A DNA stretch of 64,000 nt, taken from NCBI GenBank assembly GCA_963727775.1, contig CAVSHB010000002.1:256001-320000 (forward strand). Direction: 5' to 3'. This document shows, piece by piece, positions 2,609 through 46,504 of this stretch. Each line of letters starts with the position of its first letter. Positions within the stretch are counted from its first letter, which is position 1. The stretch is from an uncultured Nitrospiraceae bacterium (GTDB lineage Bacteria; Nitrospirota; Thermodesulfovibrionia; Thermodesulfovibrionales; SM23-35). Under the pieces are notes generated by a model, which was not told where the DNA came from, did no database searches, and saw nothing but the letters and a program-made list of their open reading frames with translations. Position numbers and translations under genes: made by a program.

Positions 2609-4042
2609 TTAGAATGAACTGCTTTTTGACTTAATTTGGTCTTTCATCTAACGTTCCTGAATAAATTCACATGAGGTTGTTGAAAATAAACTTTCTACAA
2701 GGCGAGATGTATGAAAACTTTTGTGCTGAAGCCATTATTGCCTCCATTTACAGCTGCAGAAGCATAGACCTGATTTTGATTATACCAGCTATAAAAAATA
2801 TTGCAACATCATGCATGTAATGTTCTCAGAATGGGATACAGCGCAAGTACATTATACAATCAGATTATCCCCTTTATGGCGTATTATCGGACACCTCCCA
2901 TTGTTGCCTTTTCGTGCTTTACCCATTCCCAAATTATTTTTTTAAAGTTCTGCAATAACGATCCATATTGATTCCAGGGTCTGCACAATATTCCGGGATG
3001 TTTAAAAATGAGAATTGTTGTTTGAAATGCTCGTCATTTGCCTTACCCTGAAACGCGACGTTGATTCGGAAATCTTTATATATCTATGACGACCAAATGT
3101 ACACAGTACTATGTGCTATACGTAACAAAATTGATTGATTCTTAGGACCACCAAGGGTCATGATCAAGCCTGCTTTTTCAAAAAGGAAGAGGAGGATCAA
3201 TGACCCAGGCAAGACCGATTGTCAGCAGACCACACAGCAGTGAAATCGAAGTAATAAGTTATCAGGATGTAGCAAGCTCTTATATTGATCGTATTCTTCA
3301 GAAGATTTCTGCAATGGAGTTTCCCGGCAAAGAGGCCTGCGAGAGCTACATGCGCCACAAGTGGAGAATGAATCACAAGCCAAGCACTCTTGAGAGCAGT
3401 CTCCACGCTGTGAGTTCCTTTCTCACTTTCTATGCCAGCATAGGGAAGAGCCAACTTCAAGATGTAGTCAGTGACGATCTTGAGAGATTTGTCGAACACG
3501 AACAGGATCGAGGGCTGAAGGTCACGACGGTAAGGACAAGGCTTCATTGCCTCTTTGCTTTCCTGCGGTTTCTGATCGATCAGGATATCGTTGGCGAACG
3601 TATACTCAAACGTAAGATCAAACTCAAAGTGCCTGATTTCCTGCCAAGAGCTATTGCACCGGGCGATGTAAGAAAGTTTCTTGGTGCTATTAAAGAGATA
3701 CGTGACCGTGCCCTGATACTCGTGCTCTTACGAACAGGCATGAGAATCGGCGAAGTTCTTCGCCTGAATGTAAGAGACTTGGATGTTAGGGAAAGAAAGA
3801 TACACATTTATGAGGGGGAAAAGAACTGCCTTGGACGAGTGGTCTATCTCAGCGACGATGCTTTAATGGCCTTAAGGTGTGGGCGGCGGAGTAAAAGAAC
3901 TGGTAACGGAGGAACCGAAAGCGTCGCTGATGGAGCCAGCCTGAAGATTGCAGTTAGAATTAATGAGTAGACTGAAGAACCCACCTTAGAGACCCACCTT
4001 TACATACAATGATACCTACAACAAAGTAGTTGGAGGTAATCA

Positions 4043-4486: not shown

Positions 4487-5899
4487 ATGCAAGAATCGCT
4501 TCAAAACCGGGCGCGGCACCTATATCAGGTTGAAGGGTTGAGCCTGAATCAGGTAGCGACGAAGCTGGGCATATCGAGAAAAAAGGTTACCCGCCTCATT
4601 CGGCAAGACGACACCAGGAGAAGATCCTCCGGTAACATCCTGGCGCCCTATGCGCGGTTAATTCAGCAGTGGTACACGGAATATCCGTTTCTGCAGGCCA
4701 TACAGGTAATGGAGCGGCTGAAGGGCTACGGGTATGAGGGAGGGTATACGGCGGTGAAGGATTACACGCTCCCATTAAGAAAGAAGCGGAAGGGCAACTC
4801 CTTCCATGCGCTGGAGTTTCTTCCAGGGGAAGAATCGCAGGTTGATTGGATGCAGAGGAGCATGCCTTTCGGGGTAGTCTACGGGTTCGGCTACATCCTG
4901 TCCTATTCGCGGTACCTTTACGCTCACTTCTATCTGAGGAGCTCTATGGAGTTTTTCCTGGACGGCCATATTGAGGCCTTCAAAGAAATAGGAGGTGTCG
5001 CCAACAGACATGCTTATGACAATCTCAAGTCCGTAGTCATAAAGAGAAAACCGGAGATAACTTACAATGCTCGTTTTTTGGACTTTGCACGGCACTATAA
5101 TTTCTCTATCCGTGCCTGCAATCCTGGCAAGCCTAATGAGAAAGGCAGGGTTGAGCGGGTCATCAGAGACATTGAAAGCTTCCTCGTCATCAATACCTTC
5201 GCCGATATCGACGATCTTAATAAAAGATTCGGCCTCTGGCGCATACAGAGAAATGCCAGGATTCACCGATCCACGGGAATGCCTCCTGTTGAGGCGTTAA
5301 AGCAGGAGAGACTCATAGCTCTCCCCCAAATCCATTACCTGCCTTACAGACAGGAGCCGGCATCCATCAACAAGACGTGCTTTGTGGAGTTCGACACCAA
5401 CCGCTACTCAGTGCCATCCCAGTACGGAGATATGCCCTGCGACATCTTTGGGTATCCTCAGCACATAGAAATAGCGGTGCATGGCAGAAAGATAGCGACG
5501 CACAAACGGGTATTCGACAGAAAACAAAAGATAGAACATCCTTCTCACCGCGAGAAACTTCTCAATATCACTCCCCACTATAAATACAAAAGGATGCACC
5601 AGCTTCTGAAGTCCATGGACAAAAACATCGAACACTTCCTCAACCGCGCTGAACAAGAGGGACAGGATCCTCTTGAGGTTGCTTACGAACTGTTCAAACT
5701 TCTTAAAGGCATAGCCAGGGAGACACTGATATCGGCGGTCAAGGCCGCCATAAGCATCGATACCTATAGAGTGACCTATATCCAGGGGCTTCTGGGTCCG
5801 GCGGGCAATCAGGACAATCCCGTGCATCCCCAGAACCCGGGGCTGTTACATATCTCATATGAAGGGAGGCAACTGAGCGATTATGATGAACTTATCTGA
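4487..5899 (+). CDS. istA: IS21 transposase IstA
   Basis: N-terminal HTH, PGEESQVDW, YDN, KGRVER. Confidence 0.95.
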   Translation: MQESLQNRARHLYQVEGLSLNQVATKLGISRKKVTRLIRQDDTRRRSSGNILAPYARLIQQWYTEYPFLQAIQVMERLKGYGYEGGYTAVKDYTLPLRKKRKGNSFHALEFLPGEESQVDWMQRSMPFGVVYGFGYILSYSRYLYAHFYLRSSMEFFLDGHIEAFKEIGGVANRHAYDNLKSVVIKRKPEITYNARFLDFARHYNFSIRACNPGKPNEKGRVERVIRDIESFLVINTFADIDDLNKRFGLWRIQRNARIHRSTGMPPVEALKQERLIALPQIHYLPYRQEPASINKTCFVEFDTNRYSVPSQYGDMPCDIFGYPQHIEIAVHGRKIATHKRVFDRKQKIEHPSHREKLLNITPHYKYKRMHQLLKSMDKNIEHFLNRAEQEGQDPLEVAYELFKLLKGIARETLISAVKAAISIDTYRVTYIQGLLGPAGNQDNPVHPQNPGLLHISYEGRQLSDYDELI

Positions 5900-6560
5900 G
5901 CTGTGGAGGCACTTCAGGCTCCTTGCGGATCTTGAAGCTCTTTCAAAAGAACAAAAGGAGTTTATGTTGAAGTTCCTCACCGAGGAGTATCATCGAAAGG
6001 AGTTAAAAAGGATCCAGTACCTCATGAACATGTCCGGCATCAAGAGAACAAAGATCCTCGATGACTTCGACTGGAAATATAATCCAAAGATACCAAGGGA
6101 CAAGATCATAGAATACATGAACACCCAGTGGCTTAAGAAACCCAGCAACCTTGTGCTCATAGGCCCGGCCGGTGTCGGTAAAACCCATGTCGCAACCGCA
6201 CTGTGCCATGATGCCCTTACCAAAGGCTGTCAGACGGTCTTTCTTACCTTGTTTGACCTCACCGCCAAAATGGCGAAGGCCAAGAGCATCTACAGCTTCA
6301 TCGAATACCACGCGCGGGCAGCCGTTTGGTGTCTGGATGAGATCGGCTATGTGATCCCGAGCAAAGAACAGGCAGACTGCATCTTCCAGATAATCTCAAA
6401 AAGGGCGGAAGTGGGCACGACCATCGTCACCACCAACCTTGTACCGTCAAACTGGGGGAAGGTGTTTGATACCGTGACTGCATCGGCGATTCTTGATCGG
6501 CTCAGCATGAACGGAAAGTTCATCACCTTCGAAGGAAGGTCCTATAGAAATAGGCAGTAA
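5883..6560 (+). CDS. istB: IS21 helper ATPase IstB
   Basis: Walker A GPAGVGKT, LDEIGY, TTNL, AILDRL. Confidence 0.95.
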   Translation: MMNLSELWRHFRLLADLEALSKEQKEFMLKFLTEEYHRKELKRIQYLMNMSGIKRTKILDDFDWKYNPKIPRDKIIEYMNTQWLKKPSNLVLIGPAGVGKTHVATALCHDALTKGCQTVFLTLFDLTAKMAKAKSIYSFIEYHARAAVWCLDEIGYVIPSKEQADCIFQIISKRAEVGTTIVTTNLVPSNWGKVFDTVTASAILDRLSMNGKFITFEGRSYRNRQ

Positions 6561-7043
6561 GCTGGGTAGAATAATAACGAAAGTTCCGAATCAGGGTTAC
6601 AACTGATTAGAGATAACTCGCCTCGGCGCAGGGCGTTCCACGCTGGATTGCGCCCTGACCAGCTACAGCAGGCATCCGCCGCCGCCATATTCGGTTCCTT
6701 TCGAGCGGCGCCCACATAAGGCTCTGGCTTAGAAAAAGAAAACATCAAAGCGAGTATCTATTCCCCGGTCTACAGCATAGACATTTAGGGTACACTCAAG
6801 CCCGCAATATTTTTGTGAAGTATATATGTGCTGCAGGGCTGCAGCATAAAGGTTACACGATCCACAGCATGAGACATACCTTTGCGAGTGAACTGCTGAA
6901 CGCGGGCATGCGCCTGGAATGTCTCCAGCTCTTGTTGGGCCATCGCGATATAGAGATGACCCGGCGGTATGCTCGCCTTACCGATAAAAGCCGGGAGGAG
7001 GAGTACTTCCGTGCCATGGCGATTATCGAGCAAGGAGGCATTG

Positions 7044-7976
7044 ATGGAGCCTACTGAGCTGATTGCGAGATACCGGAGATTTCTGAAGCGGAGGAACTAT
7101 TCGGTGCACACCGTGAAAAACTACGTCAATATCCTTGGTCATTTCAGTGCCTGGCTGCGGATTCCTATAGAGCGGGCAACGTCTAAAGAAACGGACGCCT
7201 ATATGGACCATCTCTTGAGAAGGAGGAAGAAACCAAAGACCATCAATTGTCATTTCGGCTGCATCCATACCTTTTATGATTATCTTATAGAAGAGGAGAG
7301 AATGCCTATTGCCAACCCCGTCAAAAAGAAATACAGGCTTCGGTTACCGCGGCCGCTGCCCAAACATCTCAGAGACCAGCAGGTTGCAGCACTCTTCAAC
7401 GAAATCAGCGATACCAGAGATCGGGCCATGTTCATGCTAATGCTCAGATGCGGTCTGCGGGTTGAAGAGGTTGCGCGACTGACAGCAGATGCGATAGAGT
7501 ATCGCAGCAGACAGCTTTATGTCTTCAATGGGAAAGGCAGCAAGGACAGAGTTGTCTATCTCAGCGATGACGCTCTGAGTACCTTAAAAACTTATATGGA
7601 TAAACGTAGATGGTCGAAGGAGAAAAGGTTGTTCTTAGTGCAAAAGGGGCCGCTTAGGGGGAAGCCGATATCAGTTCGCGGCATTCAAAAGAGGATCGAA
7701 CACTATGCACAGAGAGCGGGGATAGCGGTATCCTGTCATCACTTGAGGCACACTATGGCAACACAGTTATTGAATGCAGATGCCGATCTCGTTACCATAC
7801 AGGATTTACTGGGCCACAGCCGGATCACTACAACGCAGTGCTATTGTAGAGTCTCCAATCTCAAAGTGCAGCGGGACTACTATAAAGCCATTAACGTTGT
7901 ACTGCAAAGGACACAGCCAATAAGAGATGATAGCTTTGAGTGGGACAAAAAAGGGATAATAGACAACAGCATATAA
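7044..7976 (+). CDS. Tyrosine recombinase 2 (XerC/D-like), apparently intact
   Basis: LRCGLRVEE, KGSKDR, HHLRH, LLGH, TTQCY; RBS AAGGAGG before ATG 7044. Confidence 0.93.
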   Translation: MEPTELIARYRRFLKRRNYSVHTVKNYVNILGHFSAWLRIPIERATSKETDAYMDHLLRRRKKPKTINCHFGCIHTFYDYLIEEERMPIANPVKKKYRLRLPRPLPKHLRDQQVAALFNEISDTRDRAMFMLMLRCGLRVEEVARLTADAIEYRSRQLYVFNGKGSKDRVVYLSDDALSTLKTYMDKRRWSKEKRLFLVQKGPLRGKPISVRGIQKRIEHYAQRAGIAVSCHHLRHTMATQLLNADADLVTIQDLLGHSRITTTQCYCRVSNLKVQRDYYKAINVVLQRTQPIRDDSFEWDKKGIIDNSI

Positions 7977-8710: not shown

Positions 8711-8781
8711 ATTACCGGTTGTACAGCACAGAATTATTACATTTCTTAAAGGTGCGGCTTTCAGGAAGGAAGCTTGCGCAT
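8711..8781 (-). repeat. Array repeat copy 1
   Basis: attaccGGTTGT acagcac AGAATTATtac...TTTCAGGAAGGAAGCTTGCGCAT (plus strand shown). Confidence 0.9.
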
Positions 8782-8829
8782 GGGCTCTCCTTGCCCCATG
8801 TCAACGGGTACCCCCTCGTCACTCTTTAT

Positions 8830-14195: not shown

Positions 14196-14265
14196 ATTCC
14201 AGTTGAACTGCGCACAATCATAGCACCTTTGAATGGTGTTACCTACAGGAAGGAAGCTTGCGCAT
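14196..14265 (-). repeat. Array repeat copy 5
   Basis: attccAGTTGA actgcgc ACAATCATAGCA...CTACAGGAAGGAAGCTTGCGCAT. Confidence 0.9.
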
Positions 14266-14416
14266 ATACCTTCATCTTTTTTCACAATGCGTCTTTCGCC
14301 CCGTAATAAAAAGGGTATTTTTACGAGCGGATTCCCCGCTGGAACACCTCGGTTAGATGTAGTCATCATCGCCCAATGTCAGGGCTGACCCCATTCCCCT
14401 GTTACTTACAACAAGC

Positions 14417-16761: not shown

Positions 16762-16780
16762 AGTAAGCCTCCTTTGTTAT

Positions 16781-16833
16781 TTTCCTTTTGTACTCAAAAC
16801 AATTATATCAGGTCTTCGAGTAGTGGACTACAG
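16781..16833 (-). repeat. Array repeat copy 7, left part (remainder at 20062-20080 beyond the IS110 insertion)
   Basis: TTTGT actcaaa ACAATTATATCAGG...CTACAG | GAAGGAAGCTTGCCTAT. Confidence 0.9.
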
Positions 16834-17399
16834 CTTGCTATATTGTAGTTAATGATGAGATCGATATATCTTCCAGGTAAGAATTGTTTATCCGGCAAAG
16901 GAAAGAAGGAGGAGATATTTATGAAAGGGTTACGGACGAAAAGAGTAAACATGATAAAGGAAGGGGCATTGATAGTAGCGATAGACATTGGTATGGCAAG
17001 TAACCATGGGTGCTGTGTGGCAGCAGACGGGAGGAGCACCAAGACATTCAAGTTTGATAATACAAGAGAAGGACTTGATAGATTGTGGAACATGGTACTT
17101 GCGAGCAAAACCAGATTTCAATGCAATGAGGTCATTATAGGATATGAGTCAACCGGACCTTATGGAGAGCCGTTGGTTCACTATCTCAAGCAGAAACCAG
17201 CAACGATCGTACAAGTAAACCCACTGCACACGAAGAGGATGAGAGAGATCAATGACAACTCTCCATTAAAGACTGATCGTAAGGATCCCCGGGTAATCGC
17301 GGATGTCATACGGATAGGGCACGCCTTAAGCGTCGTGGTCCCAGAAGGTGCTGCCGCCTATTTGAGAAGAATAAATAATGCACGGGAGAGACATATTAA

Positions 17400-19019
17400 C
17401 CCGAAAAATGCGTTTGCTATAGGCATACCTATAGAGTCAAGCCTATCAAGGCATTGGCTGATTTGTCGATATAAAAGCTAATACTGATGCTGTTTCTTGT
17501 TCCACCTCCTGAAAATTATGTTCTTTTTATCTAAATGCAGTGCAATTACCAAAACTGGGGGGAAAGTATTGTCCCACGCGGTTAAAGAGGTAGCGCAGTT
17601 TTGATCGTACTTTCTGCGTAAAGACAGAAATCCGCAATACAGGTTTCCTTCCATCCCATCCTAATTGGGCTGGAAGGACAAGATACTTGTACCGTAAGGT
17701 TTTCAAACGTTCTGTCTTTTCTTTTTGACCGAGTATCTGATGCCTGAACAGGACAAACAGATTGTAGATGAATACCCGAATAAGCATAGCCGCCTCCGTT
17801 GAGTAGAAATACTTCATCGAGAACCCGCCGAGTGCAAAATCCTCTTTCAGTTCCTTGATGGTATTCTCATCGTTCGCCCTATGCCTGCATTGCTTCCATA
17901 CCTCATATGTAGAATCATGTGAATTGGTTATCCATACGCTATAACGATAATGCCCTGTATCAAACTCATCTCCGAAAAGAGACAACTCTTTTCCCATCGC
18001 GTGCGGTCTCTTCTTGACATCCTGGCGCACTGCAATAAACCTCCTGTCGATTATCCACTCTACATGCTGGAAGAAGAACTCAGTGATCCATATCCCTTCT
18101 TCTACCTGTGCCCAGTTTTGTTGTGCGTAGATTATCCTCTGCAGCGGACGATATAGGCGAGCAGCTATGATATATACTAATTCTCTCTTCTCAAGCAGTT
18201 CGATGAACTCCCTAAGATAAAATCCACTGTCTGCAATAATGCCCTTGATATCGATATGACCGTTGATCCTCTGCCATGTGGATTCAAAAAATCCAATAAT
18301 GTTGTTCCATGACATCACGTTGCCGGGGCGGTTCCAAAGATTTATCACATACTTGTTTCTGTTAAGAAATGCCAGAAGCGGGCTGTGGCTACCACGGCCC
18401 TTCTTCTTCGGGTTATATCCCCTCTTGACTCCCTCCTGTTTTCCGTATCGCTCAAGGACTGTAGAATCGAACGTCAACCAGTCCTCTTTGAGCTCTTTCC
18501 AGGGGATCAATCTCTTCAAGTATCCCCATAATCCCTCCGACATCTCTTCCACTTCCTTCAGTTTTCTGATCTTCCTGAAAAGCCTGCCCAATGTCGTCGA
18601 GGCGATAGGAAGCCTCTTCACTGCAAAAAGATCGGTGAAAATCTCCTGCCAACCAAGATAAAGTAGATGAGAAAACCTGCTGCCTCCCGCATAGATCAGA
18701 AGGATGTATGCCAATACCTTGCTGTATATCCCCATTCCATTGGGTGAACTCTCATGGATCGGAATCACCTCTTGCAAAATTCCTCTCAATTTGATCTTTT
18801 CAAAAAATGCAGCCAATAAACTGAATCCCCCATATGCCGTCATCTTCTTCTCCGTAAATCCAATCCTTACTTTATTTATTTCGATCTTTGTGCTACATTT
18901 TGACTGCATATTTCTATTCTCCTTTCGTTTAGAGTTGATGGTCGGGTAAACCTATTGATTCTAATACGAAAGGAGAATTTCTTCGGGGATATTATTTTAG
19001 GTCAACTGCACTTTTTGGG
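17400..19019 (-). mobile_element. IS1380-family element nested in IS110
   Basis: Ends CCCGAAAAATGC / GCACTTTTTGGG; TTAA duplication (17396-17399, 19020-19023). Confidence 0.9.
17527..18909 (-). CDS. IS1380-family transposase (ISEcp1-like)
   Basis: TFDST, GYNPKKKG, ADSGF, RANDENTIKELK. Confidence 0.93.
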   Translation of the reverse strand: MQSKCSTKIEINKVRIGFTEKKMTAYGGFSLLAAFFEKIKLRGILQEVIPIHESSPNGMGIYSKVLAYILLIYAGGSRFSHLLYLGWQEIFTDLFAVKRLPIASTTLGRLFRKIRKLKEVEEMSEGLWGYLKRLIPWKELKEDWLTFDSTVLERYGKQEGVKRGYNPKKKGRGSHSPLLAFLNRNKYVINLWNRPGNVMSWNNIIGFFESTWQRINGHIDIKGIIADSGFYLREFIELLEKRELVYIIAARLYRPLQRIIYAQQNWAQVEEGIWITEFFFQHVEWIIDRRFIAVRQDVKKRPHAMGKELSLFGDEFDTGHYRYSVWITNSHDSTYEVWKQCRHRANDENTIKELKEDFALGGFSMKYFYSTEAAMLIRVFIYNLFVLFRHQILGQKEKTERLKTLRYKYLVLPAQLGWDGRKPVLRISVFTQKVRSKLRYLFNRVGQYFPPSFGNCTAFR

Positions 19020-19825
19020 TTAAAGAGCGGACCGCTCTTCTCAACCAATTACGGCAGTTTGTGTTTCTCATATTCCCAGAATTTGGCCGAATAATAAAGA
19101 CGATATTCTGCAAAACATCCTTACATATACTCAAGAAATATACGACACCGGCAAAGGTATGCAGCGTAAATATAGAGAAACTTGGAGGGGAAATGAGGAG
19201 ATGTAGCATGGGCAAATTCGGGGTAGAACATGCTACGGCGCTGATCAATTATGCAAAGACCACCATCGGTATTCAAGAAGGGTTGGACGGATTAGTTATG
19301 GATATACAGCACGCCCTCGTCCAGCTGGAGATGGTCGATAGTCTCATAGCGGAACTGGAGCACGAGATGGAGACAACCCTACAGCGCATACCCTACAGTC
19401 GCAAACTCCTGTCAATCAAAGGGCTCGGGATAGTAACGGTAGCAGGGCTTATTGGTGAGATAGGCGACTTTACAAAGTTTAAAACGCAGTCTGAGATAGC
19501 GAAGCTTGCCGGTCTTGACCTGTACGAAGTAAGCTCCGGGAAAAGACAAGGACAGAGGAGGATATCAAAGAGGGGCAGAAGCCTGTTACGGAAAATACTG
19601 TATTATGCCGCCATGCAGACAATCAGAAAGAACGGCATTATGCATGAGTACTACCAAAGACTGATAGGCCGGGGCATGAAAAGTATCATGGCGCTCGTTG
19701 CAGTATCCAGGAAACTATTGAGGATCATATTTGCAATTGTAAGGGATGACACTGAATTCATAATGAATCATGAAGCTCAGAGAAAGGAGGAGATGAGAAA
19801 GGCCGCTTAGAGTTATAATTCACGT

Positions 19826-19990
19826 AGGCGGGGAGATTATCGTTTTCTTCCTTTAAGGCGCAATGCGACCTTCGACTACAGAATACATAACTCCCCGTCG
19901 ACATTCTAACTCCAATTAAGCAAGGTAAAAGCGTTCAATACGACTTTCAAATTACAAGGGTTGGGTAGGATGTCACATACAAGATGGGGG
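19826..19990 (+). ncRNA. Putative IS110 bridge RNA 1
   Basis: Scaffold shared with element 2; loops carry TTCTTCCT and GACTACAG (target flanks), AGCAAG and ACAAG (element ends); boundaries approximate. Confidence 0.8.
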
Positions 19991-20088
19991 ATAACCGTCT
20001 ACGAGAATAGATATTTCTATCTAAGTCCACATATAAAAATATATCTTGACTGGAATAAACAAGGAAGGAAGCTTGCCTATGATTCTGC

Positions 20089-20457
20089 TCAAAACTCATA
20101 TCCTCTCTTCACCCAATAATGCCAGTCGGCAACGGCTTCTAGGGTTTGCTCATCTGCTTTCGATACTTTGAGCTGGCGCAATGGAACTGCCAAAGATCGT
20201 TTTTGCCAGCTGATCATGACAAACATATCATGCTCACACTCCGTTTCCGGGGCCATCTTTGTTACTTCTACTTCCTCACCGATAAGAAGTGGCGATGTTT
20301 TTCTTGTAGCAATACACTTCGCTTTGAATGGAAATCTCAGTTTGTCTTCGAGGTAATAATACCATCCCAGTGAACGCTCTTCCTCGTTGTAAGCGTCAAC
20401 GACAATTTCCATGAGAATGCGGTCTTCTCTAATCTCATCTTCTTTGATTCTCGACAT
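20089..20457 (-). CDS. CcbP-like calcium-binding family protein
   Basis: EIVVDAY...GWYYYLEDKLRFPFKAKC...DWHYW. Confidence 0.8.
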   Translation of the reverse strand: MSRIKEDEIREDRILMEIVVDAYNEEERSLGWYYYLEDKLRFPFKAKCIATRKTSPLLIGEEVEVTKMAPETECEHDMFVMISWQKRSLAVPLRQLKVSKADEQTLEAVADWHYWVKRGYEF

Positions 20458-21192: not shown

Positions 21193-21263
21193 ATTACCGG
21201 TTATACTAAGCACAATTATATCAGGTTTCAATCTTGCCGGTTTCAGGAAGGAAGCTTGCGCAT
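21193..21263 (-). repeat. Array repeat copy 9 (near consensus)
   Basis: attaccGGTTAT actaagc ACAATTATATCAGGTTTC...TTTCAGGAAGGAAGCTTGCGCAT. Confidence 0.93.
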
Positions 21264-21293
21264 GGTATAAATAAGAGCGACCAGATTTCTTTA

Positions 21294-26033: not shown

Positions 26034-27736
26034 GAGTCTGTCGGACTTGAATTGCTGTTTTTGACAGCGGTTGGAATCCGAGAGAGTCGATTGTAGTTAT
26101 TTTTCATGATTTGATCGTCTGTCATCGGTTCTTTCCTGCCGGTGTTTTGTTGGATACATTATGCCATCGCCATTTTCAGGCGCCTACCTGGCTGTTCCTC
26201 AATGCATGCAGCCTTTTGATGTTCCATGCAATGCAGATCATATCCCACTCGCCATTGACTGCAGTAAAACCACGCAACAGGAATCGGTCAAATCCCATAG
26301 CTGCCTTGATTACCCCAAACGCCGGCTCCACAGTACTCTTGCGTATCGCATAAATTGCCTTACCGGCAACTGTCTTCAACCGATGTTTCATTCTTGTCAC
26401 TGCATCAGCATCAACCGGCAATGGAGGCGGTTCGACGAATCGCTCCCATAAAGGCTGATTATGACTCTGCCGATCTACTGCTATATATGGCTCTATTCCT
26501 TTGCTCTCACATTCTTGCACATTTGCTTCGCTGTAATACCCGCTGTCGGCTATTATAGTTTTTACTTTGCCAAGTTGTTCGGGCAGATATGTAAGCGCTT
26601 CAAGCGCTGGTTTCATCTGCTGTTTGTCATTGGATTGTTGTGTTACATGCGTTGCGACAATAAGCATTGTTTCTGTATCCACGGCTGCTTGAGCATTATA
26701 AGCCTGCTTGAATCCTCCACCCGATGCCGGCATTATGCGAGATTCTTCATCGGTCAGATTGACCTGATCTTTGTCAGTTGGCCCGGCTGCAGGCGGCTTG
26801 GGTCCTTTGCCTCGGGGTTTCTTGCCGCTCTGCTTTTGTTTGGCTACACGCTCTGCCTGTTTCTTTTCACTGTCGGCTTGTTCCATTGCATGCCGCTCTG
26901 CCGCACGGCGCTCTATCTCAGCTTTTGCTTCAGCTATCATTTTCAGCCGCTTCTCTCGCCGCTCCAGCTCTTCCGGGATGTTCATGCCGTCAGGAATGTC
27001 AGCTTTGTCAGCAGCCTCAGCTTTCTTCATCAGTTCCGCCACTTCCACTTTCAACTTATTCTCTATTTTGCATGCATGCCCGTAGCTCAACGCCTTGTGC
27101 TTTGAGGCATTGGCTTTCATTTTGGTCCCATCCAAGCTGACCGTGCCTAACTTCAATACCCCGGTTTCTGCTGCTATCATTAGTATCTGCACAAACAGTT
27201 CTTTCAGCTTAGGCAAAAACCGACGTCGAAAGGTTGCTATTGTGTCATGGTCAGGGTGACTGTTGGCTGCCACATACCGGAATGCTACAGAGTCGTACGT
27301 GCTACGCTCTAATTGCCTGCTCGAAAAGACTCCCGTCGCATATCCGTAAAATAATAATGCCACCAGCATCTCAGGGCTGTATGCCTCACTGCCTCGTCCT
27401 GCATAATCATTTTTCAACCGGTCAAGATTAAGCTGATCCACTATCTCTACGACAAATCTCGCCAAGTGACCCTCGGGCAACCATTCCTGCACCGACGGCG
27501 GAAATAAATATATCGTCTCTCTGTCACATTGTTTGAACATTATGCTGATCTCCTGTTGTTCATTCTTATGCCGCTTGTCTATTATGCCATAAGGAACGCC
27601 CATGCAGGTCTGTCGGACTTAGATAATTACAGGCCGAAAAGATTTCTGCTGCCCAGTTTGCAATAAAGGTTCTTAAGAGACTGCCGTGTCCTTCAAGAAG
27701 TAAACTTTTCAGAAATGTTGAAAGTCCGACAGACTC
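26034..27736 (-). mobile_element. IS1182-family element, copy 1
   Basis: IRs GAGTCTGTCGGACTT / AAGTCCGACAGACTC, flanked by CTAG; 1703 bp. Confidence 0.93.
26176..27540 (-). CDS. IS1182-family transposase
   Basis: PDHDTIATFR, LDGTK, ADSGY, RKSTVEPAFG; likely start MFKQ. Confidence 0.93.
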   Translation of the reverse strand: MFKQCDRETIYLFPPSVQEWLPEGHLARFVVEIVDQLNLDRLKNDYAGRGSEAYSPEMLVALLFYGYATGVFSSRQLERSTYDSVAFRYVAANSHPDHDTIATFRRRFLPKLKELFVQILMIAAETGVLKLGTVSLDGTKMKANASKHKALSYGHACKIENKLKVEVAELMKKAEAADKADIPDGMNIPEELERREKRLKMIAEAKAEIERRAAERHAMEQADSEKKQAERVAKQKQSGKKPRGKGPKPPAAGPTDKDQVNLTDEESRIMPASGGGFKQAYNAQAAVDTETMLIVATHVTQQSNDKQQMKPALEALTYLPEQLGKVKTIIADSGYYSEANVQECESKGIEPYIAVDRQSHNQPLWERFVEPPPLPVDADAVTRMKHRLKTVAGKAIYAIRKSTVEPAFGVIKAAMGFDRFLLRGFTAVNGEWDMICIAWNIKRLHALRNSQVGA

Positions 27737-42760: not shown

Positions 42761-44463
42761 GAGTCTGTCGGACTTGAATTGCTGTTTTTGACAGCGGTTG
42801 GAATCCGAGAGAGTCGATTGTAGTTATTTTTCATGATTTGATCGTCTGTCATCGGTTCTTTCCTGCCGGTGTTTTGTTGGATACATTATGCCATCGCCAT
42901 TTTCAGGCGCCTACCTGGCTGTTCCTCAATGCATGCAGCCTTTTGATGTTCCATGCAATGCAGATCATATCCCACTCGCCATTGACTGCAGTAAAACCAC
43001 GCAACAGGAATCGGTCAAATCCCATAGCTGCCTTGATTACCCCAAACGCCGGCTCCACAGTACTCTTGCGTATCGCATAAATTGCCTTACCGGCAACTGT
43101 CTTCAACCGATGTTTCATTCTTGTCACTGCATCAGCATCAACCGGCAATGGAGGCGGTTCGACGAATCGCTCCCATAAAGGCTGATTATGACTCTGCCGA
43201 TCTACTGCTATATATGGCTCTATTCCTTTGCTCTCACATTCTTGCACATTTGCTTCGCTGTAATACCCGCTGTCGGCTATTATAGTTTTTACTTTGCCAA
43301 GTTGTTCGGGCAGATATGTAAGCGCTTCAAGCGCTGGTTTCATCTGCTGTTTGTCATTGGATTGTTGTGTTACATGCGTTGCGACAATAAGCATTGTTTC
43401 TGTATCCACGGCTGCTTGAGCATTATAAGCCTGCTTGAATCCTCCACCCGATGCCGGCATTATGCGAGATTCTTCATCGGTCAGATTGACCTGATCTTTG
43501 TCAGTTGGCCCGGCTGCAGGCGGCTTGGGTCCTTTGCCTCGGGGTTTCTTGCCGCTCTGCTTTTGTTTGGCTACACGCTCTGCCTGTTTCTTTTCACTGT
43601 CGGCTTGTTCCATTGCATGCCGCTCTGCCGCACGGCGCTCTATCTCAGCTTTTGCTTCAGCTATCATTTTCAGCCGCTTCTCTCGCCGCTCCAGCTCTTC
43701 CGGGATGTTCATGCCGTCAGGAATGTCAGCTTTGTCAGCAGCCTCAGCTTTCTTCATCAGTTCCGCCACTTCCACTTTCAACTTATTCTCTATTTTGCAT
43801 GCATGCCCGTAGCTCAACGCCTTGTGCTTTGAGGCATTGGCTTTCATTTTGGTCCCATCCAAGCTGACCGTGCCTAACTTCAATACCCCGGTTTCTGCTG
43901 CTATCATTAGTATCTGCACAAACAGTTCTTTCAGCTTAGGCAAAAACCGACGTCGAAAGGTTGCTATTGTGTCATGGTCAGGGTGACTGTTGGCTGCCAC
44001 ATACCGGAATGCTACAGAGTCGTACGTGCTACGCTCTAATTGCCTGCTCGAAAAGACTCCCGTCGCATATCCGTAAAATAATAATGCCACCAGCATCTCA
44101 GGGCTGTATGCCTCACTGCCTCGTCCTGCATAATCATTTTTCAACCGGTCAAGATTAAGCTGATCCACTATCTCTACGACAAATCTCGCCAAGTGACCCT
44201 CGGGCAACCATTCCTGCACCGACGGCGGAAATAAATATATCGTCTCTCTGTCACATTGTTTGAACATTATGCTGATCTCCTGTTGTTCATTCTTATGCCG
44301 CTTGTCTATTATGCCATAAGGAACGCCCATGCAGGTCTGTCGGACTTAGATAATTACAGGCCGAAAAGATTTCTGCTGCCCAGTTTGCAATAAAGGTTCT
44401 TAAGAGACTGCCGTGTCCTTCAAGAAGTAAACTTTTCAGAAATGTTGAAAGTCCGACAGACTC
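42761..44463 (-). mobile_element. IS1182-family element, copy 2
   Basis: Same IRs, CTAG flanks and 1703-bp length as copy 1; identical ORF translations. Confidence 0.93.
42903..44267 (-). CDS. IS1182-family transposase
   Basis: Identical protein to 26176..27540. Confidence 0.93.
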   Translation of the reverse strand: MFKQCDRETIYLFPPSVQEWLPEGHLARFVVEIVDQLNLDRLKNDYAGRGSEAYSPEMLVALLFYGYATGVFSSRQLERSTYDSVAFRYVAANSHPDHDTIATFRRRFLPKLKELFVQILMIAAETGVLKLGTVSLDGTKMKANASKHKALSYGHACKIENKLKVEVAELMKKAEAADKADIPDGMNIPEELERREKRLKMIAEAKAEIERRAAERHAMEQADSEKKQAERVAKQKQSGKKPRGKGPKPPAAGPTDKDQVNLTDEESRIMPASGGGFKQAYNAQAAVDTETMLIVATHVTQQSNDKQQMKPALEALTYLPEQLGKVKTIIADSGYYSEANVQECESKGIEPYIAVDRQSHNQPLWERFVEPPPLPVDADAVTRMKHRLKTVAGKAIYAIRKSTVEPAFGVIKAAMGFDRFLLRGFTAVNGEWDMICIAWNIKRLHALRNSQVGA

Positions 44464-44819
44464 CTAGAAAACAAAAACGTTTCTAACACCTTCTACTGGT
44501 TTATTATTGTCAAGAACTTTTTACGGAGTAACTCCCCTCTGATAGAGACAAGCCACTACTAAGGTTTCCTGGCTTCAATGGTTTCTGCTTCGTTCTTTGC
44601 CCCCAGATCCCTTGTCTCATTACGTAATCCATTCTGCATGTTTGAGAGCCAATTCTGAAAAAGCGGCTTCGTAGAAAGCTATAGGATCGATTATCTCAGC
44701 ATGACCCATATTACGGTATCCCCTGGATTCGGCGTTTCTCTTTTTTATGCCTCCTCTTGGCTCCTTTCACTTAACCTTATATCAACCTTCTCACTTCCAT
44801 CTCCATTAGGAGGAAGTCA

Positions 44820-44982
44820 CTTTAGTCTTTGGTGTAGCACCTTGCCTGACACTGGTAATTCGAGGGTCTCAACAGAGCCCTGACCTTGCTTAATCGAGAC
44901 TAAGGTGCAAGCGGGGAGTTACAAGCTCCGCATGAAGGTCGGCTCAGCCGCCTTAGGTATCAGGTCGGTAATCTCCCCGCTT
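44820..44982 (-). ncRNA. Putative IS110 bridge RNA 2
   Basis: Scaffold GCGGGGAGATTA...AAGGCG...GACCTTC...TAACTCCCCG...TTAAGCAAGGT; guide TGCGGAG equals the element flank. Confidence 0.78.
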
Positions 44983-45000
44983 ACACGCCAATACTATAAG

Positions 45001-46263
45001 TTATGCAGCCTCCTGGTATTGAAGTGAGACTATAGAGAAATCTTTTTTGTATACACTTTGGTCACGCACAACAGCAAATATGATTCCAAGAAGTTTTCTT
45101 GCTACGGCGATCAGCGCCTTGGTCTTAGGCATGCCCCGCTCAAGGTACTTTTGATATTGATCGTGCATTATTCCACCTCTGCGGACTGTGTTGAGCGAGG
45201 CAAAGTACAAAAGTTTACGCAGCAGGTGACGGCCTCGCTTAGATATGCGTCGCTTCCCCTTGTATTGGCCAGAACTGATCTCATAAAGGTCCAGCCCTGC
45301 GAGCTTTAGGATCTCGGAGAGGGTTTGAAACTTCCGAAAATCACCCACTTCACCGATAAGACCGGCAGTGGTAACCTCTTTAATCCCCTTTATCGAGAGG
45401 ATCGAGCCACTGTAGGGAATCTGCTTCAGATAATACCCCATTTCCTTTTCCAGATCCCCGGTAAAGGACTCAGCAGCGTCCATGGCGATAAGAAGTTCTC
45501 TTATCTCACGTATAATGCTCGTCATGCCTTCGGTTACACCTATAGAAGCTGTTGCAGCCTCATAGAGGGCCTTGGCGCGATCTTCCTTCAGCTTTCCGCG
45601 GCTGACCTTATTGATCGTTGCACTCAAATTATCAAGACCGTACGCGACAATATCCTTGGGTGCTGGGCACTGCGCAAGGAGATATCGGGCAGTCAACGTC
45701 TTTACATCCTTCATTACCTGCAAAAACTCAGGAAAGATAATCGCAAGCAAGCTCTGGAGCTGGTTCACCAGGGATACATAACGCTCGTTGCTCCTTTCCC
45801 TGGCCTGAGTGAGCCTCCTGAGTTTGGCCGCTGGACCTTCCGGGATCACTACAGTCAGGGCGTGGCCAAGTGCCATAATATCAGCGATAACCTTTGGGTC
45901 TTTCTGGTCGGTCTTGTTCGGCGAATTACCCTGAAGCTCCTTAAGCCTCTTAGTGTGCATAGGGCTTACTTGTACCATGTGTACGCCTCTCGCACGCATG
46001 AAATGAACAAGAGGTTCGGCATACGGCCCGGTGGACTCGTATCCAAAAACAATATCTTCGATGTTATGGAGCTTTTTGGCATAAGATACACGATCCCAGA
46101 ACTCTTGGAAACCCCTGCCGTTGTTCCAGAAGGCAAAGGGCTTCACATCGCTTCCGTCCGGACAGCGCCAGTATCCAAAATGTCTATCCTTTCCCATATC
46201 AGCTGTCACAATCATCGTTCTACCATTGACTACTTTAAACTTTTTTGTTTTACTCTTCTTCAT
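45001..46263 (-). CDS. IS110 recombinase, intact
   Basis: TADMG, YESTG, KTDQKD, SSG. Confidence 0.95.
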   Translation of the reverse strand: MKKSKTKKFKVVNGRTMIVTADMGKDRHFGYWRCPDGSDVKPFAFWNNGRGFQEFWDRVSYAKKLHNIEDIVFGYESTGPYAEPLVHFMRARGVHMVQVSPMHTKRLKELQGNSPNKTDQKDPKVIADIMALGHALTVVIPEGPAAKLRRLTQARERSNERYVSLVNQLQSLLAIIFPEFLQVMKDVKTLTARYLLAQCPAPKDIVAYGLDNLSATINKVSRGKLKEDRAKALYEAATASIGVTEGMTSIIREIRELLIAMDAAESFTGDLEKEMGYYLKQIPYSGSILSIKGIKEVTTAGLIGEVGDFRKFQTLSEILKLAGLDLYEISSGQYKGKRRISKRGRHLLRKLLYFASLNTVRRGGIMHDQYQKYLERGMPKTKALIAVARKLLGIIFAVVRDQSVYKKDFSIVSLQYQEAA

Positions 46264-46504
46264 GGCTATACTCCTTTCTTTGGTTTGGATTTAACCAACT
46301 CGCACATTGGTCTGAATCAAGAAAGAGTATAGCCTTCTTTAACAAGGCCTAACTCTACAACAATATAGCAAGCTCCGCAGCCGAAATGTATTGAAATTAT
46401 TGCTGTATACTGGTACAAATATTGAGATCTTAAAAGAACAGTTTTTATAAAAAGGTTTCAGGTGTTGTTTGTCTTACGGAATTGGGGTAAAGATGAGTAG
46501 CATA

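Follow-up and report, generated by a model that had tools for sequence, protein, structure and literature searches.

A broken IS110-family element and its putative guide RNA at a repeated promoter-like module of an uncultured Nitrospiraceae bacterium

We describe an insertion sequence (IS), here called IS-A, at positions 16834..20063 (plus strand) of a 64,000-nucleotide (nt) stretch of DNA from an uncultured Nitrospiraceae bacterium (GCA_963727775.1, contig CAVSHB010000002.1, positions 256,001 to 320,000), hereafter the window. With high confidence in the reading as a whole, we propose that IS-A is a defective copy of an IS110-family element with IS1111-type layout, and that elements of this kind choose their targets with an RNA from their right non-coding end, here directed at the edge of a repeated, promoter-like module. 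An original prediction had placed an IS110 element in copy 7 of a local repeat array, with a bridge RNA programmed against that repeat. Matches to PF01548, PF02371 and NF033542 bear out the first claim, and the covariation of target guides with insertion flanks among relatives supports the second.

Results

Target guides and insertion flanks

The target loop of the putative RNA holds two guides on the plus strand. On its 3' side, the left-target guide GACTACAG (19874..19881) equals the left flank of IS-A (16826-16833) in 8/8 bases; on its 5' side, the right-target guide GTTTTCTTCCT (19842..19852) is complementary to the top strand AG|GAAGAAAAC. The original prediction had reported the left match and, as right guide, TTCTTCCT at 19845-19852, the reverse complement of AGGAAGAA and 7/8 to the IS-A flank AGGAAGGA. 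Every one of these coordinates and matches was reproduced on the sequence, the right guide being longer than had been claimed. Its numbering of the array is likewise reproducible, with AGGAAGAA carried exactly by copies 2, 6, 11 and 15 (starts 11118, 16501, 24065 and 28820). The 8/8 left match goes beyond chance because the 8-mer occupies the single scaffold position at which relatives hold their own left-flank sequence; with AG fixed in the family, the chance of matching the six non-AG bases there is about 1 in 4096.

A scan of genome contigs yielded 70 loci of relatives (L001 onwards). The RNA scaffold is present in 68 loci, and both flanks are available for 54, representing 26 distinct guide pairs. 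Left guides match their own flank at 4.45 of 6 non-core bases and the flanks of other types at 1.66; for right guides the values are 6.22 and 3.99 of 8. The own-flank match was equalled in 0 of 5000 permutations for either guide. Among the loci compared, some indistinct left ends were probably assigned falsely (L015, L069), and such calls weigh against the result. Target-loop guides thus co-vary with insertion flanks across the family.

The same relation is visible at single-base scale within the IS-A clade. All members have the same right guide, and GAAG opens 13/14 right flanks (exception L008). The left guide varies; at its fifth position it has A or T, and in 11/13 insertions the flank has the same base (exceptions L004 and L008). 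IS-A pairs guide GACTACAG with flank GACTACAG, and L002 and L003 pair guide GACTTCAG with flank GACTTCAG, one base apart. Guide and flank are both CATTACAG in L007; L001 has guide CACTTCAG and flank GACTTCAG.

Among L016-L069, left and right targets are often alike, as in TCGCAAAG|ACGCAAAG and CCGCGAAG|GCGCGAAG, and it looks from these flanks as if short tandem or direct repeats serve as insertion sites for many of the elements. The right flank of the L024/L026/L028 group is shifted by one base relative to the guide.

A conserved two-loop RNA in the right end

The right non-coding end is highly conserved among relatives. An alignment of 34 distinct right-end versions, analysed with RNAalifold, gave a bridge/seek RNA at about 19827..19973 (plus strand) with four helices and 36 pairs, 23 of them with compensatory changes. 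Helix P1 (19827-19840 with 19887-19899) leads to the target loop, capped by 19855-19859 with 19867-19872, and helix P2 (19901-19914 with 19961-19973) to the donor loop, capped by 19929-19934 with 19940-19946. Pairing on the named structure reaches 98.3% of cells, compared with 88.3% in column shuffles, none of 500 of which equals it, and falls to 36-52% of cells when the partners are slid by 1-3 columns. This fold and its covariation support the two-loop guide RNA that had been predicted for the 3' non-coding end. Two internal loops, each with a hairpin cap, correspond to the published bridge-RNA plan, in which the loops have target and donor roles (PMC11208160). Just 5' of the RNA, a TAnnnT -10-like box stands at a distance of 7-8 nt in 13/13 sequences compared; in IS-A it is the conserved TATAAT at 19814-19819.

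The second loop had been predicted to match the element's own ends, which it does. Donor guide AGCAAG (19919..19924, plus strand) reverse-complements CTTGCT at the left end (16834-16839), and ACAAG (19954..19958, plus strand) equals the last five element bases (20059-20063). GCAAG, which faces CTTGC, is invariant in 34/34 versions, and the preceding A becomes G in L019. The 3' donor guide exists as ACAAG, ATAAG or ACCAG and agrees with the right end wherever both are known, so that donor guides co-vary with the element ends.

These data bear on a rival account, in which the right-end structure is a 3' untranslated region, terminator or translational control element, the protein picks the target and the flank matches are chance. 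The structure does lie directly 3' of the stop codon, and contigs from RNA libraries, which show no transcript ends, extend out of the gene across it (X16 record 10, 19620-19969). Against this, the two target-loop segments change with the flanks across 26 guide types while the helices still pair, the donor loop varies in step with the right end of each element, and a scan of 19700-20120 found no terminator-like site. We regard this account as extremely improbable, and retain the reading of the structure as a guide RNA.

Boundaries, coding parts and the nested element

IS-A spans 3230 nt, or 1610 nt without a nested element. Six relatives (L001-L006) share 90-94% protein identity with it and come from Nitrospirota/Thermodesulfovibrionales metagenome-assembled genomes (MAGs), apart from one short contig binned as Chitinophagaceae. 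In the uninterrupted L001, L002 and L004, both IS-A halves are contiguous and have the same terminal bases, which fixes the boundaries of IS-A and identifies the IS1380-family element within it as an insertion. The left junction (16833/16834) reads ...GTGGACTACAG|CTTGCTATATTG and the right junction (20063/20064) ...GGAATAAACAAG|GAAGGAAGCTTGCC. The span first proposed, 16826..20080, did contain the element; its end was misplaced, as 20080 includes 17 flank bases and the true end is 20063. AG stands at both junctions (16832-33 and 20062-63), and in IS-A and the relatives' junctions read it precedes the left end and closes the element, with no target duplication beyond this short shared core.

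The left non-coding end (16834..16920, plus strand; 87 nt) begins with the terminus CTTGCT, followed by a -10-like TATATT at 16839-16844, and its sequence CTTGCTATATT is kept among the IS-A-related loci compared. The right non-coding end (19811..20063, plus strand; 253 nt) carries a -35 half-promoter, TTGACT, at 20046..20051 (plus strand), which would stand 17 nt from TATATT if a circle closed 20063 onto 16834. By analogy with ISEc11 and ISEc21, for which junction promoters have been described (PMC11187229), the pair may act as a circle-junction promoter. Read by eye, a candidate subterminal inverted repeat is formed by TATTGTAGT (16841-16849) and ACTGGAATA (20049-20057), matched at 7/9 positions with extensions of 7 and 6 nt.

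The transposase gene lies in two parts on the plus strand: an N-terminal DEDD/RuvC-like domain (16921..17399; PF01548, DEDD_Tnp_IS110, E=1.6e-24) and a C-terminal Transposase_20 domain (19024..19810; PF02371, E=2.9e-25), so that both domains of the IS110 family are present. The halves match NF033542, 'IS110 family RNA-guided transposase', with 74.1 and 120.6 bits; the split of the gene keeps each below the cut-off of 140 bits. The solved IS621 transposase (8wt6_A) is a distant match for the C-terminal half (E=1.3e-9), and the same chain a weak one for the N-terminal half (E=0.0065).

The break at 17399/19024 was made by a 1620-nt IS1380-family element (17400..19019, minus strand; transposase 17527-18909, NF033539 201.8 bits), flanked by a TTAA duplication (17396-17399 and 19020-19023). 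Once this element and one TTAA are removed, the C-terminal half is in frame with the N-terminal half, and L001 has an intact 422-residue open reading frame (ORF); the defect belongs to this copy and not to the family. By blastn, the IS1380-family element has four full-length copies at 100% and three at 99.94% elsewhere in the genome, from which we conclude that the nested insertion is recent; IS-A itself is a single copy.

The target module and its array

The site occupied by IS-A is one copy of an intergenic, non-palindromic, promoter-like module of about 90 nt, present 15 times in the window and about 60 times in the genome, partly clustered and partly single, as counted by repeat finding and with a profile built on 12 copies. 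The left part of copy 7 (16771..16833, plus strand; nhmmer E=1.5e-7, repeat family D2) ends in GACTACAG at 16826-16833 with the core AG at 16832-33, and the right part (20064..20080, plus strand) begins GAAGGAAGCTTGCC. Its minus strand reads TGATATAAT, and an extended -10-like box in the module lies upstream of genes. Read one by one, 11/13 plus-strand window copies checked lie no more than about 120 nt upstream of a minus-strand ORF; genome-wide, 35/60 modules precede ORF starts versus 308/600 random positions, a measure without discrimination. IS-A inserted at the upstream module edge, 26 nt upstream of the -10-like box, and this edge reads AG|GAAG in 45/60 genome matches and CAG|GAAG in 31/60.

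Scored with both guides, the occupied site reaches 15 of 17, as does one other position among about 6.86 million in the genome, and 94 genome sites score at least 13 of 17, 8 inside modules and 86 outside. Copies 5 and 15, which carry CTACAGGAAG and had been named as free targets, score 13 (window 14248) and 14 (window 28879). A further module, on the minus strand at C3:2110, has 8/8 on the left and GAAG on the right.

We rejected two identities for the module. It is not an integron attC site, as it forms no hairpin and no integron integrase accompanies it. The nearby tyrosine recombinase (6969-7976) is Xer-like, and its TIGR02249 score of 114 bits falls far short of the cut-off of 265. When six modules were folded as DNA, five had z-scores between 0.09 and 0.56 and one had -1.55, with no excess structure of the kind an attC palindrome has. 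Nor is it a repetitive extragenic palindrome (REP), since REPs are palindromic and the module is not.

The 15 modules of the array (8694-30893) part unrelated small genes, among them SPFH, a chagasin-like inhibitor, CcbP, hemerythrin, transglutaminase-like, TPR and DAGK genes; in the last of them (30893-30812) the module has the opposite orientation, towards a gene on the plus strand. To the right of the insertion point (8764-8783, 14248-14267, 21246-21265, 20064-20077 and others) 8/13 module copies read have GG-N10-GC with TTGC, for example AGGAAGGAAGCTTGC, a spacing that resembles a plus-strand sigma-54 -24/-12 box. The same stretch contains AAGCTTGC, which on reading resembles the IS-A circle junction AAG|CTTGC. 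Other mobile genes lie nearby: a second recombinase (3200-3970) is apparently cut by an IS21-type element (4487-6560), and a gene for a 475-residue DDE transposase (DUF772 and DDE_Tnp_1) occurs twice (26176-27603 and 42903-44330, minus strand) with identical inner ORF patterns, which adds a further multi-copy IS to a window already rich in them.

Sites of other copies

All six close copies with flank data, IS-A and copies in five other assemblies, sit at the module edge. Tabulation of flanks, which the original prediction had called for, thus placed the close copies at the same repeat position, and the scatter over unrelated sites that would have told against it was not seen among them. The first 13 bases of the right part of copy 7, GAAGGAAGCTTGC, are common to the right flank of L002, whose 19 bases, GAAGGAAGCTTGCGCATGG, recur unchanged in two intact modules (8764 and 21246); L002 also has a second module-like site at 4759. 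L005 has TATATCAGG exactly 30 nt off the junction, as in the window. In L001, L003 and L004 the motif GATTWYYRG stands 54-55 nt upstream of the junction; it is upstream of no other locus, and its genome rate is 553 per 6.86 million positions.

A second IS110-family element of this genome, IS-C, came to notice through two module edges ending ...CAG|CTTACTATA. It has 1613 nt, a 425-residue transposase, a 248-nt right end and four identical copies, all outside the window (C4 about 121015-122627, plus strand; C3 about 202105, C3 about 107067 and C2 about 574548, minus strand). Where the C-terminal parts align (residues 107-245 of IS-A), the two transposases are about 39% identical. Module-like sequence with a WCAG|GAAG edge holds 4/4 copies, and the profile matches the left flank of two of them. 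The IS-C right end holds a guide-like GCTTCTTC, the complement of GAAGAAGC, 5' of GGATTCAG. Its minimum-energy fold has a long outer helix in place of a first helix like that of IS-A, which had been drawn by eye, and the assignment of GCTTCTTC and GGATTCAG as target guides is therefore offered as a suggestion.

These sites speak to a second rival, according to which the element reads a short motif only (about WCAG|GAAG and a few bases) and the module merely contains it, with no special relation between element and array. In its favour, relatives of 62-69% identity with the same right guide (L007, L009-L011, L013 and L014) occupy WCAG|GAAG sites without a module in the flanks, 86 of the 94 high-scoring genome sites lie outside modules, and recognition extends over about 12-15 bases only. 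On the other side stand the six close copies in their shared module-like position, the GATTWYYRG motif confined to L001, L003 and L004, the IS-C copies at four further module edges and the frequency of AG|GAAG at the edge itself (45/60). We judge this rival unlikely and keep to the reading in which the specified sequence is the conserved module edge.

The genome also holds a 1877-nt paralogue of IS-A, IS-B (window 44496-46372, minus strand), with 46-48% protein identity and four identical genome copies. It shares the RNA scaffold (44815-44984, minus strand), and its right end reads ...AATAAACCAG, as in its relatives. The guide ATGCGGAG matches the left flanks at 8, 8, 7 and 7 of 8 bases; the right guide expects G|TATCAGG, which one copy has exactly, and three have TAGAAGG. 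When empty or repeated targets of IS-B were sought across the genome, no repeated site emerged; the boundary first drawn for IS-B was wrong.

Discussion

By homology with IS621, ISEc11 and ISKpn4, we propose that an intact element of the IS-A type would be excised as a circle, whose joined ends would set TTGACT 17 nt from TATATT and create a junction promoter. A bridge/seek RNA of about 150 nt would be transcribed from the right non-coding end. In its donor loop, AGCAAG would pair with CTTGCT and ACAAG with the right end of the closed circle, while the target loop would specify the conserved upstream module edge (..WCAG|GAAGRA..). The DEDD/serine recombinase would then exchange strands at the shared AG core, giving insertion in one orientation without duplication. 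IS-A landed in copy 7 of the local array, and the IS1380-family element later split the transposase gene, leaving IS-A no longer self-mobile.

Several observations weigh against this interpretation. Two insertions of the clade fit their guides poorly: L004 matches at 5/8 only, and L008 lies at an unrelated site with 4/8 and the right flank GGGC. The module profile, run on the 70 relatives' loci, gave three weak matches only, in L002 and L013. Apart from the weak matches in L002 it detected no module in the relatives' flanks, and their link to the module rests on the fixed-distance motif and on flank reading. At the insertion flanks of more distant members of the clade, from Desulfobacterota MAGs, no module is seen. 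The candidate subterminal inverted repeat agrees in 7/9 bases only, with a right extension of 6 nt and not 3 nt. Rfam at gathering thresholds had no match in the window, and a consensus sigma-70 scan of 19700-20120 flagged no promoter for the RNA, the TATAAT at 19814 being passed over because it is without a -35. No RNA of this organism was found, no sequencing run holding half of the sampled words of 19024-20063. Four studies, with one metatranscriptome library each, supply contigs of 90-96% relatives that cover the right end (X16 record 10 and, over 19724-19983, X20 record 22 among them), and these give a weak hint of right-end transcription; such libraries can hold DNA, the contigs show no transcript ends, and stretches without contig cover carry no information. 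Finally, IS-A is single and broken, so that activity within this genome is at most putative.

This last point also qualifies the earlier claim that the IS parasitises the array site. The targeting of the site holds; ongoing parasitism does not, for this copy is dead and single and its parasitism is past, and the site is not an attC but recurs at about 60 dispersed places in the genome.

The mechanism is already known, and IS-A adds a member without changing what is known of it. A search of the full-text literature for IS110 paired with Nitrospirota returned no paper and, within the scope of that pairing, no description of IS-A or its target. IS-A nonetheless offers a clean natural case of guide reprogramming, in which a one-base guide difference from the closest relatives is mirrored in the flanks. 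With IS-C, two diverged RNA-guided elements appear to converge on one repeated host site, beyond the described integron and REP cases. The 26 natural guide types, AG core and well-supported scaffold might be of use in engineering IS1111-type recombinases.

More unusual than IS-A itself are its target module and the array. We consider it quite improbable, and mention it as speculation, that the modules mark a non-integron gene-cassette system of Thermodesulfovibrionales, with the junction WCAG|GAAG (often followed by the donor-like AAGCTTGC) as a site at which RNA-guided recombinases of IS110 type land by design, or even actively recombine. Were this so, IS110-type elements would help to build or shuffle the cassette array and not merely parasitise it.

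Among known systems, the nearest is the attC-targeting group of IS1111 elements (ISKpn4, ISPst6 and ISPa25; Siddiquee et al. 2024, PMC11187229). Choice of target by RNA has been demonstrated experimentally for IS1111-type elements at attC (ISKpn4, ISPst6) and at REPs (ISPa11). IS-A and the attC group share a DEDD transposase, a guide RNA in the long region 3' of the gene and a fixed position and orientation in a repeated site that parts gene cassettes. The IS1111 layout, a short left end and a long right end with the guide RNA (PMC11187229 and PMC11208160), recurs in IS-A, with ends of 87 and 253 nt and the RNA at 19827-19973 in the right one. So does the order of guides: in IS1111 members the RNA is 3' and the top-strand complement precedes the bottom-strand complement, the reverse of IS110 members (PMC11187229), and in IS-A the top-strand complement at 19842-19852 lies 5' of the bottom-strand complement at 19874-19881. 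Diverged transposases meet on one target in both cases, at 46% identity for ISKpn4 and ISPa25 (PMC11187229) and about 39% for the C-terminal parts of IS-A and IS-C. Unlike these elements, IS-A targets a promoter-like module that is also dispersed as singletons, and not attC; its core is AG; and its candidate subterminal repeat is short and imperfect, where IS1111 repeats of 7-17 bp (PMC11208160), or 11-13 bp with extensions of 7 and 3 bp (PMC11187229), are given. Its hosts are Nitrospirota/Thermodesulfovibrionales MAGs, and it is known from sequence alone.

IS621 and its bridge RNA are also the subject of Hiraizumi et al. 2024 (PMC11208158). With IS621 (Durrant et al. 2024, PMC11208160; PDB 8wt6), IS-A shares target and donor loops that each read both strands around a shared core dinucleotide, and a homologous recombinase (C-terminal half, E=1.3e-9). 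It differs in that the IS621 RNA lies in the left end with the reversed guide order and a CT core (PMC11208160), whereas IS-A has its RNA in the right end and an AG core, and sequence similarity is low. The REP-targeting members (ISPa11, PMC11187229; ISPpu9, PMC12288879) resemble IS-A in their RNA-guided insertion into a short intergenic repeat dispersed around the chromosome; REPs are palindromic, whereas the IS-A module is not and carries an extended -10-like box upstream of genes.

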